DNA of 64,000 nt from Escherichia phage vB_EcoM_G2540, in sequence record MK327936.1. The stretch is one strand, 5' to 3'. Under the pieces are notes generated by a model. It ran no database searches. It had not been told where the DNA came from and saw only the letters and a program-made list of their open reading frames with translations. Both the position numbers and the translations under genes were made by a program. Numbering within the stretch: the first letter of the stretch is position 1; every line of letters begins with the position of its first letter. Positions 1-60,991 of the stretch are shown piece by piece.

Positions 1-2178
1 TTAGGCCGCAAGGGCCTTCATAGTTTTAGCGATTTGGGAAACTTCATCATCACTTAAAGAGTTGCGATAACCGATGAAGTCGGAAACAATACGGAATTTC
101 TTGGTAAACTCAGCAACCATTTTATCACTGTTTTTTGAAGCATTATTTGATAATATATCAAAAAGATTAGTTACTGTCCAGATGTCATGACCGATGGTAT
201 CTTTTCCACCATTAAAATATACGCCGCGCAATGAACTAACTATATTAGCGAGTCGTGTATATTCTTCAGAAACTTCATCTGTACTGAAGTACTTCATCAT
301 AAAATCTAGTTCAGGATACTTGATAATTTTATCAATATATCGTTGAGCTGAACTTGAATAACCTACATACTTATCATAATCTACATCATCAAAAGCATCT
401 ACATATAAATCACGCAAAGCTTCAAAAATACATTGGCACTGACCGAGTTCTTTTACCTTTTTCTGCAAAAGCGGACGAATAACATAAAACTCATTAATGC
501 CAATAAGATTAGCCATACGAATCAAAATATTCATAGATGGATGACAAAGAGATGTAGTACCATCCATAGAGAAAATATCAGAACGATGCATATACGCTAC
601 ATACCCAGTAATTTCATCTGCTTCTGATGTGAGCGTAAATAATTCCTCTTTTTCCCAGCGCCCGTCTTTAATTTCAAACTTAAATGCTGTAGCAGCTTTA
701 GGACGAGGAGCTTTACTTTTAACTACCTTTGGAATATAGCTTTTAACTAAAGCTTCAATTTCTGACAAATAATGAATGTTAACTTCATCACTTTCAAACA
801 TCGCCATAATATCAGGAAGCAAATCAATCTGCGATTCTACTTCTGGATTAATAAACAGAAGGCGTTCGTTGTGATGAATATTCAAAGTGTTATTAAATTC
901 ACTATCATCTAACGCATGTGCTAATCCACGGACAATATTAACACGATTTTTAATATTATCAATAACGATATTAATTTTTGTTGCATTAATACCAAACAGA
1001 CGATAACTTGATGCAACGGCTGAAGTTTCATGACTTTGCTTAATGCGCTTCAGTCGAGGGTCAAGATTTACTTCATACACAACTCCTGCATTGCATAACT
1101 TACTGTCAGGTTCAAACATGCTCTGCATCTTTTTATATGACAGATTTTTAGTCGTAAATTTGACTGAATTACTAATCATATAATCTCGAGCAGAATACCC
1201 CATCTTCATCAATTCACGATATGTATGACGGGGAGATGTGGATTCTTTAAATCGTTTTACATCTTCATTAAATGCTTTCTCACTGAGTTCTTTAACTCGT
1301 TCAATAATATTTTTACGAGTACGATCATCCAGTGAAAGAGCCTCGCGAGATGGAGCAATATCAAGTGAACCCATTGGAAACTTAATGTAATTCACTTCAT
1401 TGCGAATGCTTAGCCAGTTACGGTCTCTAATAACACCATCGATAGGATAAACAATACCGCCATAGATAGCATATAATCCACCACGATCAGGCCAGTATCT
1501 TTCTGGATTTACACCGTAATAGTCATTAAAATCCGGAAAATAATCAATTTCGCGGTCAAGACCATTAATGATAGCCAAATCTTTGAATGGTCGCATGATA
1601 TAAGAAACTTCATAAGCAAAGTTTCTAAAGTCTTTTTCTTCAACTGGAACTACGATTTCAATACCAGTTTTATCATCTGGACCCATTTCTTTTACGAATG
1701 TAGGTTTAATCTGTGGACCATCACCATCCATGTAAGCTACATAACCACGAATTTCACCTTTATGATACGAAGTAATACTAAATGTATCAGTATAACTAAA
1801 CGGAGATTTAGAACCTAAACCAAACCCGCCAATAAAGTCATTAGATTCAGCCTTAGATGAACTGAAGTATGAATTATATAACCCAGGAGAATTATCATCA
1901 CCCTGAATATCAAAATCACTCATACCCGGACCAAAATCTCGACAAACAAATCGCGGATCTAATCGTCCTGGAACTTGTATGATAAATTTTTCAGGATTTC
2001 CATTAAGTGCATGGGCATCAATCATATTAGTAATTAATTCACGGACTACTGCACGAATCTTGTTTGTATACAAATCAGATGACAGAATTTTAAATACTTT
2101 AGGAGATGCTGTGATGCTAAATGCTTTTGATTTAGAACCATTGCCAAGAATTGTTTCTTTTTCAGTGGTGATAATCAT
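1..2178 (-). CDS. rIIA: rIIA protein, 725 aa
   Basis: 725-aa ORF ending at window position 1; length and N-terminus ([14 protein letters not shown]...) match recalled T4 rIIA. Confidence 0.85.
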
Positions 2179-11548: not shown

Positions 11549-12151
11549 TTATAGATTAAATCCTTCAAAATCAAGAGTATAGATAGTGTATGTTGAATAC
11601 TTTTTGTACTCATATCTATCTGCAATTCTAAATACACTTCCAGCTGGTATCATTACTTCTTGTTCATCTGAAACTAATTCCATATTACGATAACGATGGC
11701 TATCCGGAAACTTAAAGTTTGGATTGTATTCTTTACAACGTAGAGCTTTTATAGCATACTCCTGGAAATTGAATACCATAGGAGCTTTGAATTCAAAAAT
11801 AACTTGTGTGTTATACTCTAAACCGGAAGCAAAATGTAGAGCTATATTTTTATCATATGAAGCTGATACGACTTTATCAAATGTAATAATATCAATTCCT
11901 TGATTTAATACTTGCTTAGTCTCAGCTGGAACACCTCTCCAAAGAGGTTTATCGTTTGGTTCCAAACGAGATTTGATTATTTCATTTAACCAAGTATGGT
12001 CATCTGGTTTATTAGTAATACAATGAATTAAAAGTTCAATTTCAGATAAATTAAACCCTTCAGAAAGTAATTCTTCACGAATAGAAGCACGCACCGATGC
12101 ATCCATTGATTTTATTTTAAAATCTTTTAGTTGCATTACTGAGTATTTCAT
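11549..12151 (-). CDS. modA: ADP-ribosyltransferase ModA, 200 aa
   Basis: 200 aa as in T4 ModA; adjacent paralogue of 207 aa (ModB); start overlaps modB stop. Confidence 0.7.
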   Translation of the reverse strand: MKYSVMQLKDFKIKSMDASVRASIREELLSEGFNLSEIELLIHCITNKPDDHTWLNEIIKSRLEPNDKPLWRGVPAETKQVLNQGIDIITFDKVVSASYDKNIALHFASGLEYNTQVIFEFKAPMVFNFQEYAIKALRCKEYNPNFKFPDSHRYRNMELVSDEQEVMIPAGSVFRIADRYEYKKYSTYTIYTLDFEGFNL

Positions 12152-12771
12152 TCAACTACCTCAATATCATAAACTTTAAATGTTCCAAATGAATCGTGTA
12201 ATTTTTCTTTTGAAATAGAAGTTATTCTATACTTTCCAATTGGAATCATCCATTCTTGTTCACGCACAATCATCATTAAGTTATCAGTACGCTCTGAATC
12301 TAGCCCATCAGTATCTTCATACGTGTACTTAAACTCAGTATTAGGAGAAGAAAGTATAATATCGCTGATATGGTCAGAATAATTAAAAGCTTTATCAGTT
12401 TTTAAGCGAAATATTATTTCAGTGAAATACTCAACATAAGAAAAACCACATGCTGTGTGCAAACTAGTAGTAAATGAATCTACCCTATTCGTTGAAAACA
12501 CTTCTCCAACTTGTAAATCTTTAATGAGTTCTTTTGTCGATTTTGATATACCACGATATAACTGATAAGGTGATTTAGTTAAATGCTTTTTAACGATTTT
12601 ATTCAACTGCCGATGAAGAGCTTCATTCTTTTTAGCTTCCATACATTGCCAAAGAATTGACTGCTCAAAGTCAGTAAATTTTTCACAGACTTTTTTATAC
12701 ATATCATATTGAAAATCAACGCTTTCAGCTTTTATAGATAACTGTTCAACATCTGCAAGATTAATAATCAT
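12148..12771 (-). CDS. modB: ADP-ribosyltransferase ModB, 207 aa
   Basis: 207 aa as in T4 ModB; paralogous to the downstream 200-aa ORF. Confidence 0.7.
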   Translation of the reverse strand: MIINLADVEQLSIKAESVDFQYDMYKKVCEKFTDFEQSILWQCMEAKKNEALHRQLNKIVKKHLTKSPYQLYRGISKSTKELIKDLQVGEVFSTNRVDSFTTSLHTACGFSYVEYFTEIIFRLKTDKAFNYSDHISDIILSSPNTEFKYTYEDTDGLDSERTDNLMMIVREQEWMIPIGKYRITSISKEKLHDSFGTFKVYDIEVVE

Positions 12772-13029: not shown

Positions 13030-13512
13030 CTAGCGATAAAAACCAAATTGACGATTAGCTTCAATAATCTTTCTTTCTTCTTCAGATATTCTCCAGCGTA
13101 GTCCAACATCAAAATGAGCCCAGACCATCTTAACAAATGCATTTATATCTTTAATATCTTCAATAATGAATGTTTTACTTTTAGAAGGTTGACCTGCTAA
13201 ATTAAGTGCTAATTTAACTTTATCGTCTTCAAACAGGGCAAAAAGACCATATTCATGAGCTCTTTTATAGCCTTTAATAGTTAAAGCTTCAGAAGAAGAA
13301 AACGGTGAATCAGTATTCTGTAAAATATCTTCAGTATGCTTTATAATTAGAATAACATTTTCTGGATATTTTCTTTCTTTTATATCTTTAATTAAAAGAT
13401 CCGGATTTTCTGCTAAAGGAATAATTAATGAGCATTTTTTATCAAGTGCATTTACTGATTTACCTTCTTTAGACATAAATTCTATTGAATAATGTTTTGC
13501 TACTTCAATCAT
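13030..13512 (-). CDS. hypothetical protein, 160 aa
   Basis: ORF in the modB-soc variable block; no motif recognised. Confidence 0.45.
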
Positions 13513-13665: not shown

Positions 13666-13869
13666 TCATGATTTATCACCATAGATGTCTCTCATCAATT
13701 TAAGCGCTGAGCGTTCTAATTTCTTTTCTTTCTCAGCACTAATCATTGATTTCATCCATTCTTCCGATTCGTTCTGCATTTCTTTATTTGCTTGTTCAAC
13801 CCAACCATCGTCAATATACATTGAGTTTGGTCTATTGAACCATTCAAGAATCTTCTTGGGAGCTTTCAT
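13666..13869 (-). CDS. small hypothetical protein, 67 aa
   Basis: ORF overlapping next gene by a few codons. Confidence 0.35.
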
Positions 13870-14341
13870 TTATTTTACCTAAAACAATAGTAGGAGCATC
13901 GTCAAATTTATGAATTTTTAGTAAATTTGGATTTAACTTATTCCATAAAGAGGTAATAAAATATGATAGCGCACTTTCGTCCGTAATTATAAATTTATTT
14001 CCTTTATCTATTTTCCAATCATATATTGAATCATATGAATAGAAGGATAACGGTTTATTATTATAATATGCTTCACTAACATCAATATAGTTAGATTTAG
14101 TAAATGCTTGAATTGCCATAAATGGAGAATTTTGTACAGTTTCAATAATTCCGATCTTTTTAAGTTTTATTTCAACATCTTCTGGAATTGGCATTGAAAT
14201 AAAATCTTCTACTAGATACATGTTATTGTCATATCTTTTATCAATCATTACTGCTACGGTAATTGGAACATCCTTGACAAACGCCATACTAATACTATTG
14301 ATAAACATTTCAAACAAAATTGCTTCCATAATTTTCCTCAA
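13844..14341 (-). CDS. hypothetical protein, 165 aa
   Basis: ORF; no motif recognised. Confidence 0.45.
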
Positions 14342-14679
14342 TCACAAGATGTAGATGAACAACTAGAATCACAAGAACTTCCACATGAATCACCTGCCCA
14401 TACGTGAACAGGAACATTTGTATCATATGAATCAGAACTAGACTGTGTTTTCTGTGCATTAGATGATGTAGTAGGTGTTGACCAGCGCCAAGGATTTTTA
14501 TAATATTCTTGGGCTTCTTCATAAGTCATAGTAACTGCTTCTACTGTTCCATCTCCCATATAAACATACTCAACTACAGTTAAAGGAAGGTAGTCATTTG
14601 AAATAGGAACTACACCTTCTCCGGGAGTTGTAGAGAAAAAATCTGTAAAGAAACTTTTAAACCAATTAAAGATAAACAT
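14338..14679 (-). CDS. hypothetical protein with Cys/Ser-rich C-terminal tail, 113 aa
   Basis: C-terminus ...[20 protein letters not shown] (five Cys in 18 aa). Confidence 0.45.
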
Positions 14680-14885
14680 TACAAAAAGCCTTTCTTGAAT
14701 TCGACTTGCTTCTCACCATAATCATATCGAATTTCTGCATTAAATTCGACAGAACCATCTGCGTACATCATAAATGAATGCACAACAACTTCTGTAGACC
14801 ATGGTTGTAGTTCATATTTCTTCATTACGTGTCGTGAAATGATAATATCTAAATCTTCATTCGGTTTAATCCAACGATTTAACAT
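14679..14885 (-). CDS. small hypothetical protein, 68 aa
   Basis: ORF directly downstream of an early promoter. Confidence 0.4.
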   Translation of the reverse strand: MLNRWIKPNEDLDIIISRHVMKKYELQPWSTEVVVHSFMMYADGSVEFNAEIRYDYGEKQVEFKKGFL

Positions 14886-14912
14886 AGCGCTCTCCTCTAT
14901 AAGATAATTCTA

Positions 14913-14941
14913 TTATACCATACTCATTTTGGAAAGTAAAC
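14913..14941 (-). promoter_or_regulatory. T4-type early promoter
   Basis: plus gtaaac 14936-14941, 17-bp spacer, plus attata 14913-14918. Confidence 0.5.
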
Positions 14942-14950
14942 CATTTAAAT

Positions 14951-14977
14951 GAAAAAAGGACTCCCGAAGGAGTCCTT
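14951..14977 (-). terminator. intrinsic terminator after soc
   Basis: aggactc-ccgaa-ggagtcct hairpin followed on the transcript by a U-run; lies just 3' of the soc stop. Confidence 0.6.
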
Positions 14978-14983
14978 GAATTA

Positions 14984-15229
14984 TTAACCACCAGTTACTT
15001 TCCACAAATCTTCGTTTGCAGCAATCCATTCAGTACGCTGATTTTCTTCATATACAGTAGTATATGCTGCTTTTTCTGAAGGGAACGTCTGGTAATGAGC
15101 ACCAGAAATTTTGTGAACGTCAGAATAAAGAGGGAAAGCTACTGAAATTTCCTTTCCTTCAATTTTCTTATTTCCATCTAATTTCTGCTCAAATGTTTTG
15201 ATATTAACATAACCGCGAGTACTAGCCAT
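14984..15229 (-). CDS. soc: small outer capsid protein Soc, 81 aa
   Basis: MASTRGYVNIKTFEQKLDGNKKIEGKEISVAFPLYSDVHK... matches recalled T4 Soc; late promoter upstream. Confidence 0.8.
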   Translation of the reverse strand: MASTRGYVNIKTFEQKLDGNKKIEGKEISVAFPLYSDVHKISGAHYQTFPSEKAAYTTVYEENQRTEWIAANEDLWKVTGG

Positions 15230-15259
15230 GTAATTCTCCTTTTATTTAAATTACATGAT

Positions 15260-15267
15260 TATTTATA
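15260..15267 (-). promoter_or_regulatory. late promoter (TATAAATA) for soc
   Basis: plus tatttata at 15260-15267 is the reverse complement of the T4 late consensus TATAAATA, ~30 bp upstream of the soc start. Confidence 0.6.
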
Positions 15268-15297
15268 ATAAATTCTCGCGGCTTTTAAGACGAGCTG

Positions 15298-15816
15298 TTA
15301 ATAACCTCGGTCTTGACGAGCGAAATTTTCAGCATTTTTCAGATAATAAAGTTTAAAGATTTCTTCAGCCGTAAGACCGAGGCCTTGGAACATGTTCAGA
15401 ACGAAATGAAGAATATCAATCATTTCGAATTTAATTTCCAACTGGTCTTGTGGAGACAAATCAGTAATCAGAGTTTCACGTCGTTCACCATGTTGAGCTT
15501 TCCAAGGCTTCCATACAGCAGATGCATCTTTTTCACCATTGCTCATACCACCAAGAGAAGTCAGAAGTTCGCGGAATTCATCATCAATATAATCTTTCTG
15601 ATTACGCAGCCAATCAACAACTTCACCTGCAGTAGCCAAATCATCAGGATGACGGTTATATTCAGGTTTATCTTTAGCTAAACGAATCTGCAGAGATTTC
15701 TGCATGTCAAGCATTACCTGCAGCGGGTCTTTTTCATCACCGAGAATATCCCAATATTCATTTTGAGCTTTATCAGCGCCTTCGATCAGTTGACTACATT
15801 CGTTAAAGTAAGCCAT
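15298..15816 (-). CDS. 56: dCTP pyrophosphatase (dCTPase/dUTPase, MazG-like), ~171 aa
   Basis: matches recalled T4 gp56; start placed at MAYFNE giving 171 aa (ORF track extends to 15831). Confidence 0.75.
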   Translation of the reverse strand: MAYFNECSQLIEGADKAQNEYWDILGDEKDPLQVMLDMQKSLQIRLAKDKPEYNRHPDDLATAGEVVDWLRNQKDYIDDEFRELLTSLGGMSNGEKDASAVWKPWKAQHGERRETLITDLSPQDQLEIKFEMIDILHFVLNMFQGLGLTAEEIFKLYYLKNAENFARQDRGY

Positions 15817-15876
15817 TATTTTTCCTTTCAATTCATCAATAAGTTAAATAATTATATCATTTGAGTATGTAAGCAA

Positions 15877-30719: not shown

Positions 30720-31679
30720 TCACTTCCACTGCATTTCGCATGCTAATTGAATGAAAAGATAAGCTAAATGTAATTCAGTATTAGCTGCAATACCATGATA
30801 CTGATTATTTTCACCGACAATTTCGTACATACGAATAATACTCTGTGGTGTTACACGTGAATAGATTTCTTCGGCAAGTTTACCAATAAACCAAGAATAA
30901 TCTGCTGCATATTTTGGTGCTAAAGCTCTGAGTTGTTTAACATCTTTATTTTTGAGAGACTCAAGAACATCATCAATAGCACCACGATCGTTAGTAACCA
31001 GTGATAAAATACCAGCATCCAAAACACCTTTAGATGAATAACTATCGAGTTCGCCAATAGTTTTACGAAAATCAGGAAAATTCTTTTTAACCAAAGCTGC
31101 TACAACTTTCATATCAGCTATAGCAATTCCTTCATGCTTGCAGATTTCAGTCAATCGACGAATCATCTGCTTCATCATTTCAATTTTATCTTCATCAGTC
31201 GGTTGACCGAATGTAATAACTCGGCAGCGTGACTGAAGCGGTTTAATAATACCATCAATATTGTTAGCAGTAATAATAATACTACAGTTTGAACTATAAG
31301 CTTCCATAAAGGAACGAAGATGTCGCTGAGACTCTGCTAACCCTGAGCGGTCAAATTCATCAATAACGATTACTTTTTGACGACCATCAAATGAAGCTGC
31401 ACTAGCAAAATTAGTCAAAGGACCACGAACGAAATCAATTTTACAATCTGAACCATTCACAAACATCATATCAGCATTTACATCATGACACAATGCTTTT
31501 GCTACAGTTGTTTTACCTGTTCCTGGAGAAGGAGAATGAAGAATAATATGTGGAATCTTACCTTTACTTGTAATAGATTTAAAGGTTTCTTTATCAAAGG
31601 CGGGAAGAATACATTCATCGATAGTAGATGGACGATATTTCTGTTCAAGAATGTGTTCTTTTTCATTTACGGTAATCAT
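30720..31679 (-). CDS. 44: clamp loader ATPase gp44 (AAA+), ~319 aa
   Basis: Walker [11 protein letters not shown]; start placed at [17 protein letters not shown] (T4 length 319). Confidence 0.85.
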
Positions 31680-31711
31680 AATTTCCTCATTCAAGTTTTA
31701 GTGTAAATTAT

Positions 31712-60778: not shown

Positions 60779-60991
60779 TCATTTCGGTTTACCTTCTTTA
60801 ACGAAATCTGGATAAGGATAAAATCCCGAATAAAATCCTTCACCTTTATGATTGATGCATCCTTTATTAGAACAATAGCACCAATAATCGAAATCACAAG
60901 CCATTTCATCGTTGCATAAAGCAAAAACAACTGGCCATTTACACTTTTCACAATGGGCATTTTTAAGAATACTAGTTTGGCTCATAACCAT
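60779..60991 (-). CDS. small Cys-rich protein, 70 aa
   Basis: ten Cys (CEKCKW...CNDEMACDFDYWCYCSNKGC); preferred over the overlapping alternative frame. Confidence 0.35.
   Translation of the reverse strand: MVMSQTSILKNAHCEKCKWPVVFALCNDEMACDFDYWCYCSNKGCINHKGEGFYSGFYPYPDFVKEGKPK

Follow-up and report, generated by a model that had tools for sequence, protein, structure and literature searches.

Between modB and soc, the 64,000 nucleotides (nt) of Escherichia phage vB_EcoM_G2540 that we analyzed (sequence record MK327936.1; hereafter the window) carry a small open reading frame (ORF), mrh.1, whose product ends in a tail rich in Cys and Ser. The genome is that of a Tequatrovirus, a close relative of T4. 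An original prediction for this locus, made by a model from the DNA letters, had given a product of 113 amino acids (aa) with this C-terminal sequence, which we confirm as an ORF on the minus strand with an ATG start (Table 1). It had also counted five regularly spaced Cys residues, where we count four, C99, C103, C107 and C112, in the arrangement C-x3-C-x3-C-x4-C-D-stop.

A tblastn search with the window protein gives matches in 501 phage records at 86-100% identity, and in T4 and PP01 the match carries the annotation 'Mrh.1 hypothetical protein'. Residues 3-113 align with the whole of the Pfam profile DUF7206 (PF23836; positions 1-107 of 107, 103 bits against a cut-off of 25.6, E = 1.7e-29), and the PHROGs match is phrog_2031 (E = 3e-33), for which the function entry is 'unknown'. 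All three parts of the family signature are present: the W/F-L/I-K-x-L-F helix, the EYVYMGDG hairpin and the C-terminal C-x(n)-C-[DEN]-COOH. T4 Mrh.1 itself (UniProt P20706; gene T4p027) has the same length, about 98% aa identity and an identical tail; it differs from the window protein by one or two linker substitutions only (A/T and K/N, around residues 74-77), and its gene occupies the same place in the soc-modB early block, after mrh.2 and before mrh. By score, position and signature alike, the window ORF belongs to DUF7206 and corresponds to T4 Mrh.1, and we regard both its orthology to the early gene mrh.1 of T4 and the functionality of its tail as virtually certain.

The gene is thus already catalogued, as a T4 gene and in UniProt, Pfam and PHROGs (PHROG 2031), yet uncharacterized. 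We found no paper on DUF7206, PF23836 or mrh.1 in the phage sense in a literature search whose coverage lacked most subscription journals, so an earlier remark on the Cys-rich end is possible. Papers, structures and curated names likewise yielded no function for DUF7206 and no remark on its tail, and mrh.1 is not mentioned in the CRISPRi-ART text on T4. A preprint on the Mosigvirus 'Emp' was set aside, since it concerns a different gene that adjoins motA. Annotation of the locus varies: in phage T6 (AP018814.1) Mrh.1 at 14332-14664 is mislabelled 'prohead assembly scaffold protein' and soc at 14967-15212 'terminase small subunit', a propagated misannotation, and the Mrh.1 match in phage BW-1 (OR125554.1) bears the same scaffold label as in T6.

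Table 1. Features of the mrh.1 locus in the window, followed by related features in other loci (positions in those loci carry an L number).
Feature	Position	Strand	Remarks
mrh.1 coding sequence	14338..14679	minus	113 aa, ATG start, TGA stop; T4 Mrh.1 orthologue, Pfam DUF7206 / phrog_2031
N-terminal helix, residues 1-16	14632..14679	minus	motif M-x-x-W/F-L/I-K-x-L-F; AlphaFold2 helix at residues 4-15
PGEGVVPI motif, residues 19-26	14602..14625	minus	conserved
Beta-hairpin, residues 34-52	14524..14580	minus	best-predicted part, pLDDT 77-86; Y40, G42, G44, E47 invariant
Variable linker, residues 53-95	14395..14523	minus	one or two short helices, then Ser/Thr/Asn-rich disordered stretch
C-terminal tail, G96-D113	14341..14394	minus	four Cys; predicted disordered
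Upstream unit S102-C103-D104-S105 ('SCDS')	14365..14376	minus	in 109/117 family representatives
Terminal unit S111-C112-D113-COOH	14341..14349	minus	C112 invariant in family
soc	14984-15229	minus	
Intrinsic-terminator-like hairpin after soc	14977..14956	minus	separates soc from mrh.2 unit
Early-type sigma-70 promoter match	14940..14912	minus	TTTACT-17-TATAAT, TG extended; precedes mrh.2
mrh.2	14679-14885	minus	68 aa, upstream of mrh.1; TAA stop overlaps mrh.1 ATG
mrh	13844..14329	minus	161 aa from ATG at 14329; Pfam T4_MRH
srh	13666-13869	minus	
modB	12148-12771	minus	
Flanking ORFs with W-start motif, other genera	L009 1840-2034, L020 1746-1925, L018 1331-1504, L019 1068-1268		
ModA.4-like overlap	L016 1856-1911, L019 1880-1932, L018 1841-1896, L017 about 1760-1803		Citrobacter CF1 and Merlin, Klebsiella PWKp18, Serratia CBH8

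To describe the protein we ran AlphaFold2 twice with a 60-sequence alignment, once on the window Mrh.1 and once on P0018, an orthologue with two Cys, and the results agree. In both models the predicted local distance difference test (pLDDT) score of the tail is below 50. Most lineages have an amphipathic N-terminal helix; in four of the six sequences tested, RB69 not among the four, its hydrophobic moment is greater than in 97% or more of shuffles. The linker varies widely in length and sequence between genera and has indels even within Tequatrovirus; family proteins range from 70 to 201 aa. Reading the sequence, we find neither a signal peptide nor a hydrophobic stretch of transmembrane length. 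Mrh.1 is shown by these features, together with the RNA class given below, to be a small, non-secreted, largely disordered and early-transcribed protein.

Comparison with known folds and families gave little beyond DUF7206. Foldseek returned no PDB match at E ≤ 0.001 for the AlphaFold2 model, which is mostly of low confidence (best E = 1.1), and a profile search of the PDB gave chance-level matches only, the best of which (E = 0.043) was to a capsid protein over the linker. NCBIfam has no family matching the window Mrh.1 or P0018, PADLOC (anti-phage defence and counter-defence) has none for Mrh.1, and Rfam has none for the mrh.1 region on either strand. Mrh.1 is a member of no metal-binding, redox, defence-related or ribosomally synthesized and post-translationally modified peptide (RiPP) family tested, and the likenesses discussed below are of form only.

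Ser, Cys, Asp and Gly make up 94% of the last 18 residues, while the highest share among the 175 other window ORFs that start with ATG and reach 50 aa or more is 39%. A cluster of four Cys in 14 residues is also seen in two other window ORFs. One (60779-60991, minus) encodes 70 aa, MVMSQTSILKNAHCEKCKWPVVFALCNDEMACDFDYWCYCSNKGCINHKGEG..., and matches the Pfam 'Phage zinc binding domain' PF23895 (E = 2.6e-29); the other (31485-31706, plus) has no Pfam match and may be a spurious ORF. What sets the Mrh.1 tail apart from chance is its conservation, and not its composition alone.

Conservation of the tail

The original prediction had proposed conservation in orthologues as a check, and had named absence or frameshift of the tail in close relatives as the outcome that would speak for a non-functional run. 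The tail is in fact kept throughout the close relatives, which argues that it is functional: a 151-nt probe that spans it is covered to 80% or more in each of the 498 Tequatrovirus records that have the region. In the rows listed, record and query are of equal length throughout, apart from a known mosaic with an insertion in the linker, so the sampled tails have no indels. Over the 18 tail codons, the window and seven T4-type loci differ by synonymous changes only (GGT/GGC, TCA/TCG, TGT/TGC at three sites, and AGT/AGC). The copies of T6 and Sf23 diverge most within Tequatrovirus and have several substitutions and a 3-aa deletion in their linkers; the tail of T6 is nevertheless identical over all 18 residues, and that of Sf23 has one change, of the first residue from Gly to Ser, with the Cys-bearing 17-residue core exact.

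The mosaic form, P0003 (17 member sequences), has an insertion of about 50 aa in the linker and retains the four-Cys tail. An example is Escherichia phage 235Ecol030PP (PP355091.1, 13697-14006), whose 164-aa protein joins a T4-type N-terminus to the four-Cys tail. The inserted segment is homologous to the linker of the VR26/JS98-type orthologues (MEEIIRQPEKAGNVGAGALPLNSKKLKEHLD...), and the mosaic is evidence of recombination between genera inside mrh.1. Broken copies are fragments or frameshifts of 1-7 sequences each (P0005, P0006, P0008, P0009 and L008), to be set beside intact groups of 515, 3, 17 and 1 members. In phage TadeuszReichstein (Bas43; MZ501106.1, L029 547-914) mrh.1 carries a frameshift near codon 39, beyond which the original frame still reads through an intact tail; to judge from the sequence, the copy either has become a pseudogene recently or contains a sequencing error. 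The split gene is annotated there as two hypothetical coding sequences (CDSs), of which the second is a spurious ORF in an alternative frame.

Beyond Tequatrovirus, an exhaustive HMMER search yielded just 11 representatives when the query was the single protein, and a profile built from diverse members found 119 cluster representatives, all of them PF23836. The phages infect Escherichia, Salmonella, Klebsiella, Enterobacter, Citrobacter, Serratia, Edwardsiella and Hafnia, and DUF7206 is confined to T4-like phages of Enterobacterales, in at least eight phage genera. Those that we examined directly include Tequatrovirus, Mosigvirus, the VR26/JS98 group (genus not checked), Moonvirus, Winklervirus, Marfavirus, Kanagawavirus and others. 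Identity to the window Mrh.1 drops to 25-50% in other genera. The ending C-x(4-12)-C-[D/E/N]-COOH is still found in 117 of 123 representatives, and the remaining six are truncated or frameshifted fragments. The tail is thus preserved in orthologues, outside Tequatrovirus as a motif with two Cys, and for most of the family it reads ...YDSG..S-C-D-S..(S/G)n..S-C-D-stop.

The details of the motif are constrained as well. The last residue is D in 114 of the 117 complete members, N in two and E in one, and Y-D-S-G stands upstream of the Cys units in 107. Exactly two Cys occur in the whole protein in 106 of them, and 111 have all their Cys within the last 25 residues. Only five residues are invariant in the 60-sequence alignment, namely C112 and, in the hairpin, Y40, G42, G44 and E47, while S102-C103-D104-S105, S111 and D113 are each at least 90% conserved. 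The T4 lineage has elaborated a motif with two Cys, the ancestral form, into the four-Cys tail; the original pair corresponds to C103 and C112. The idea that the extra T4 Cys arose by a Tyr-to-Cys change was dropped, as the alignment is ambiguous in this low-complexity stretch.

At homologous positions Ser is encoded by both TCN and AGY codons across genera, and Cys by both TGT and TGC. The DNA that follows the mrh.1 stop and the identity of the downstream gene also differ between genera, and the C-D-stop ending persists. Because codons switch while the flanking DNA and gene differ, selection acts on the tail peptide and not on the DNA, and the comparison argues firmly for strong purifying selection on the tail at the protein level. 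The tail is one of the two most conserved parts of the family, with a core of two Cys-Asp units of which one is C-terminal.

A search with a profile of the C-terminal 46 residues returned one family member, one chance match (P0127) and a mini-protein that stands outside DUF7206. The latter, P0126, is a 47-aa protein ending in ...SSYDSCDSSSPSCD on metagenome contigs (L024 3001-3144), and its version in Citrobacter phage Ci1 is annotated as a 58-aa CDS, MRYETPEQRRKREAEEQRRRNRNSGYTPSQTTYVDDYTPSYNSDSSYDSCDSSSPSCD (OR515478.1 168703-168879; L027 2725-2901). The mini-protein consists of a highly charged helix joined to the end of the DUF7206 linker and the tail, without the N-terminal helix and hairpin. 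Its gene in Ci1 is a separate one, starting 6 nt after the Dda-type helicase gene (dda) with its own GAGG Shine-Dalgarno sequence and followed by a terminator-like hairpin, near genes for an Alt-like ADP-ribosyltransferase and an ADP-ribosylglycohydrolase. Cronobacter phage S13, which is related to Ci1, has an unrelated small ORF in that position. This arrangement, known from one lineage only, suggests that the tail does the work of the protein and is able to operate when carried by a different scaffold.

Transcription unit and neighbouring genes

On the minus strand the genes run in the order soc, mrh.2, mrh.1, mrh, srh, modA.4, modA.3, modA.2 and modB, which is identical in T4 and PP01. The original prediction was therefore right to place the ORF in the modB-soc block, but the early promoter that it put next to the ORF adjoins mrh.2, about 230 nt upstream of the mrh.1 ATG. 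By its position this promoter match would drive mrh.2-mrh.1-mrh-srh. The stop of mrh.2 and the start of mrh.1 share the sequence TAATG at 14679, an overlap that indicates translational coupling of mrh.1 to mrh.2, and the GAGG Shine-Dalgarno sequence of mrh overlaps the mrh.1 stop codon. Time-resolved omics of T4 place the mrh.1 RNA in the class 'early' (PMC9697503 supplement file 4). The soc-modB early block modulates host transcription and stress responses through mrh, srh and modA/B (PMC6070864). The same source calls the region dispensable and reports that late transcription is influenced by mrh and srh in rpoH mutants and at 42 C.

The neighbourhoods of mrh.1 in T4, PP01, VR26, JS98, RB69, CF1, Merlin, CBH8, PWKp18, KLB31 and PS2 contain only small early proteins, soc, gene 56 and modB. 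In the window, soc adjoins gene 56 (dCTPase, 15298-15831), which is followed by dam, with a gap at 15230-15297; the T4 reference has the homing endonuclease gene segF next to soc in that stretch, and the window phage is without it. ModA.3 (13030-13512, minus) and Mrh (13844-14341, minus, as the ORF that was matched) both match Pfam T4_MRH (PF24070; E = 2e-36 and 1e-40) and phrog_1234, and the block therefore holds two Mrh paralogues. VR26/JS98-type phages have the ModA.3-like copy only, with srh directly behind mrh.1.

In Citrobacter, Klebsiella and Serratia phages (Table 1) the tail-coding DNA is overlapped by a ModA.4-like ORF in another frame, whose only upstream ATG lies inside the Tyr-Asp codons of the mrh.1 tail (tATGac) and is preceded by an AGGAG formed from Ser-Gly-Asp codons. 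Annotators have picked different starts for it in different records.

A further feature of the block is a start of the form M-x(0-9)-W-[LIFMV]-[KNE], found in 4 of 176 window ORFs: mrh.2 (MLNRWIKPN), mrh.1 (MFIFNWFKS), srh (..ILEWFNRPN) and Dmd. Small ORFs that flank mrh.1 in other genera begin in the same way (MRITSWLKDWL, MNRVVKWFKSL, MNWIKRFLDW and ..PLPWIKAWIK; Table 1). This shared start of small early proteins may be an N-terminal targeting or docking motif, or may reflect common ancestry.

Possible functions of the tail and comparison with known systems

Judging from what is conserved, the chemistry of the tail is probably the binding of a metal or a thiol, and the mechanism that we tentatively favour, while holding it open to serious doubt, is chelation. 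The tail would then be the working end, acting through its thiolates and the neighbouring carboxylates, and would most likely chelate a soft metal ion (Zn2+, Fe2+ or an iron-sulphur (Fe-S) cluster) in a site that possibly spans two chains or is shared with the site of a host protein. The N-terminal helix and the hairpin would tether the tail to a host target or to the membrane during early host takeover. It is exactly the Cys residues that are invariant, and two further Cys are fixed in the T4 lineage, which fits thiol chemistry such as metal binding. Several features lead us to prefer chelation: the spacer between the S-C-D units varies (x4-x12, with Ser/Gly filler), which a chelate loop would tolerate better than a single groove; the T4 lineage has gained and fixed two more thiols; and the protein has no Cys besides those of the tail, whose thiols the cytoplasm would keep reduced, since Mrh.1 has no signal peptide. 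Short unstructured Cys/Asp motifs are also known to bind metals, an example being CCCDGAC of Escherichia coli ZntA (PMC10800456).

A number of observations weigh against chelation. Pfam at E ≤ 0.1 gives only DUF7206 and hence no metal-binding family, and the tail has neither a His ligand nor the paired CxxC or Cys-x-Cys arrangement of zinc ribbons, zinc fingers and metallothioneins, its spacings being x3, x3 and x4 in T4 and x4-x12 elsewhere. In most genera there are only two Cys per chain, a small number for a high-affinity site, and therefore a dimer or a partner must be assumed. The strict placement of the last Cys beside the free C-terminus, and the Y-D-S-G upstream, suit a peptide-recognition motif equally well. 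The frameshift in TadeuszReichstein shows that mrh.1 is dispensable in at least one isolate, unless it is a sequencing error. Finally, the T4 proteomics assign the Mrh.1 protein to the class 'NA', i.e., not detected, and the neighbouring proteins were detected (PMC9697503 supplement file 4). This last point is uninformative, because the tryptic peptides of T4 Mrh.1 are 8, 53, 4 and 48 aa long, with four Cys in the C-terminal 48-aa peptide; for the same reason we rejected the non-detection as a hint of modification.

The recognition motif just mentioned could take the form of a bivalent docking site, in which the two S-C-D units and the free carboxylate are read by a host protein such as a dimeric enzyme, a chaperone or a protease adaptor. 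The Cys would then be determinants of shape or hydrogen bonding and not ligands, and Mrh.1 would be an inhibitor, decoy or adaptor. A Cys that is always penultimate and a last residue that is nearly always acidic are typical of motifs in which the C-terminus is read, and the conserved Y-D-S-G, the disorder that the tail shares with linear motifs, its different N-terminal context in Ci1 and the limitation of the family to phages of Enterobacterales, which suggests a host-specific target, all agree with it. However, spacers between the units range from 4 to 12 residues, which one binding groove would not usually allow; two extra Cys stand in the T4 lineage where others have Ser, Gly or Tyr, in a gene kept in about 500 genomes; and no partner is known. 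We find docking unlikely. Less probable again is a redox-active dithiol tail that engages thioredoxin or glutaredoxin, from the host or as the phage NrdC/NrdH, as substrate, sink or decoy. In its favour, the Cys pair sits within a disordered C-terminal tail, and disulfide formation tolerates a variable loop length. The last ~24 residues of the E. coli ribonucleotide reductase (RNR) alpha subunit are disordered and hold the redox-active Cys754 and Cys759 (PMC4728125), which by their numbering are spaced C-x4-C like the last pair of the T4-type tail, one residue from the C-terminus. Mrh.1, however, has no attached catalytic domain that needs reduction, with only a helix and a beta-hairpin before the tail and no match to an enzyme domain in Pfam, NCBIfam, PDB or Foldseek; the RNR tail lacks both the conserved Asp that follows each Cys and the conserved Ser surroundings; and nothing links mrh.1 positionally to nrd genes.

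The suggestion of a modified or cross-linked peptide, also part of the original prediction, finds no support in our results. Such a protein would be an acceptor of post-translational modification or a RiPP-like precursor, with an N-terminal leader and a core of Ser, Cys, Asp and Tyr open to heterocyclization, thioether formation, ADP-ribosylation, phosphorylation or the like by enzymes of the host or the phage. Its layout is superficially that of a leader, a variable spacer and a Cys/Ser-rich C-terminal core, ADP-ribosyltransferase genes lie in the same early region (modA/modB, and the Alt-like gene in Ci1), and the C-terminal peptide has never been observed by mass spectrometry. But no gene for YcaO, LanM, LanB/C, a radical-SAM enzyme or a protease/exporter occurs in the at least eight neighbourhoods examined, where the neighbours are small proteins (Mrh.2, Mrh, Srh and ModA.x) that vary between genera, and NCBIfam gives no match although it includes models of RiPP precursors. 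T4 ADP-ribosyltransferases are Arg-specific, whereas the tail has no Arg, and the proximity to the mod genes is ordinary T4 synteny; we kept the link to these enzymes only as a minor part of this reading, which as a whole is very improbable. Hardly credible, and to a large degree already refuted, is the idea that the tail is a low-complexity run without function, or that the constraint comes from the DNA, through a slippage-prone repeat, an overlapping gene or a downstream ribosome-binding site. In its favour, the ModA.4-like ORF seems to start within the tail-coding DNA in Moonvirus, Winklervirus and Marfavirus phages, and in the window the mrh Shine-Dalgarno sequence overlaps the mrh.1 stop. 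Yet T4-type tails differ by synonymous changes only, the Ser codon family switches and C-D-stop outlasts changes of downstream sequence and gene between genera, the T4, VR26, JS98 and RB69 types have no overlapping ORF, length does not vary in the sampled records of 498 genomes, and there is neither a tandem repeat nor an Rfam match. Specifically, a tandem repeat was rejected because TRF (Tandem Repeats Finder) finds none and other genera encode the S-C-D units with different codons; the only DNA repeat in the tail is the 10-nt TCTTGTGATT, which occurs twice, 27 nt apart, and encodes both Ser-Cys-Asp units. A C-D-stop forced by a downstream ribosome-binding site was rejected as well, the downstream sequences being unrelated between genera.

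A bolder proposal is that the S-C-D...S-C-D-COOH tail, which occurs on DUF7206 proteins and by itself in Citrobacter phage Ci1, might be a portable, previously undescribed phage effector module that captures a metal ion or Fe-S cluster or becomes linked to a host protein by a covalent thiol bond. We consider this doubtful, and a variant in which host enzymes turn the tail into a modified peptide is less likely. If the proposal is true, T4-like enterobacterial phages would interfere with metal or thiol homeostasis of the host in early infection.

About half of the T4 genes are still without a function. Through its conserved tail Mrh.1 moves from 'hypothetical protein' to a concrete hypothesis that can be tested cheaply, and what we add to the original prediction is that the tail is, very probably, functional and that it defines the family. 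Should the tail bind metal or trap a host protein, this would be a new small mechanism of host takeover in the best-studied lytic phage; should it do neither, little changes, as mrh.1 is dispensable in the laboratory and already catalogued. A specialist would not be very surprised, and the value of the analysis lies in a sharp and inexpensive experimental handle on an orphan T4 early gene.

Among known systems, RiPP cores such as those of microcin B17-type linear azole peptides and lanthipeptides have a conserved N-terminal part that a variable spacer joins to a C-terminal end rich in Ser and Cys, closing at the stop, and Mrh.1 is similar in this. It differs in that its neighbourhoods hold no modification, export or immunity gene, its 'leader' would be about 90 aa long, the gene is an early gene of a lytic phage and no precursor model matches. 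The class Ia RNR alpha subunit (E. coli NrdA, Cys754/Cys759) likewise has a disordered C-terminal tail with a Cys pair near the free C-terminus (PMC4728125); that tail serves an attached catalytic domain, which Mrh.1 lacks, and the S-C-D context, the terminal acid and the x4-x12 spacing belong to Mrh.1 only. The likeness is one of form alone, with no homology. The PF23895 protein of the window resembles Mrh.1 as a small T4-type protein with a dense cluster of four Cys in 14 residues, and differs by its match to a curated zinc-binding model, its CxxC-type spacing and its folded context, whereas Mrh.1 matches no metal-binding model. The N-terminal domain of ZntA has vicinal Cys beside a folded GxxCxxC domain, while the Cys of Mrh.1 are isolated by 3-12 residues at the extreme C-terminus and their metal site is putative; what the two have in common is a flexible segment in which Cys and Asp alternate with small residues, and in ZntA that segment binds soft metals (PMC10800456).

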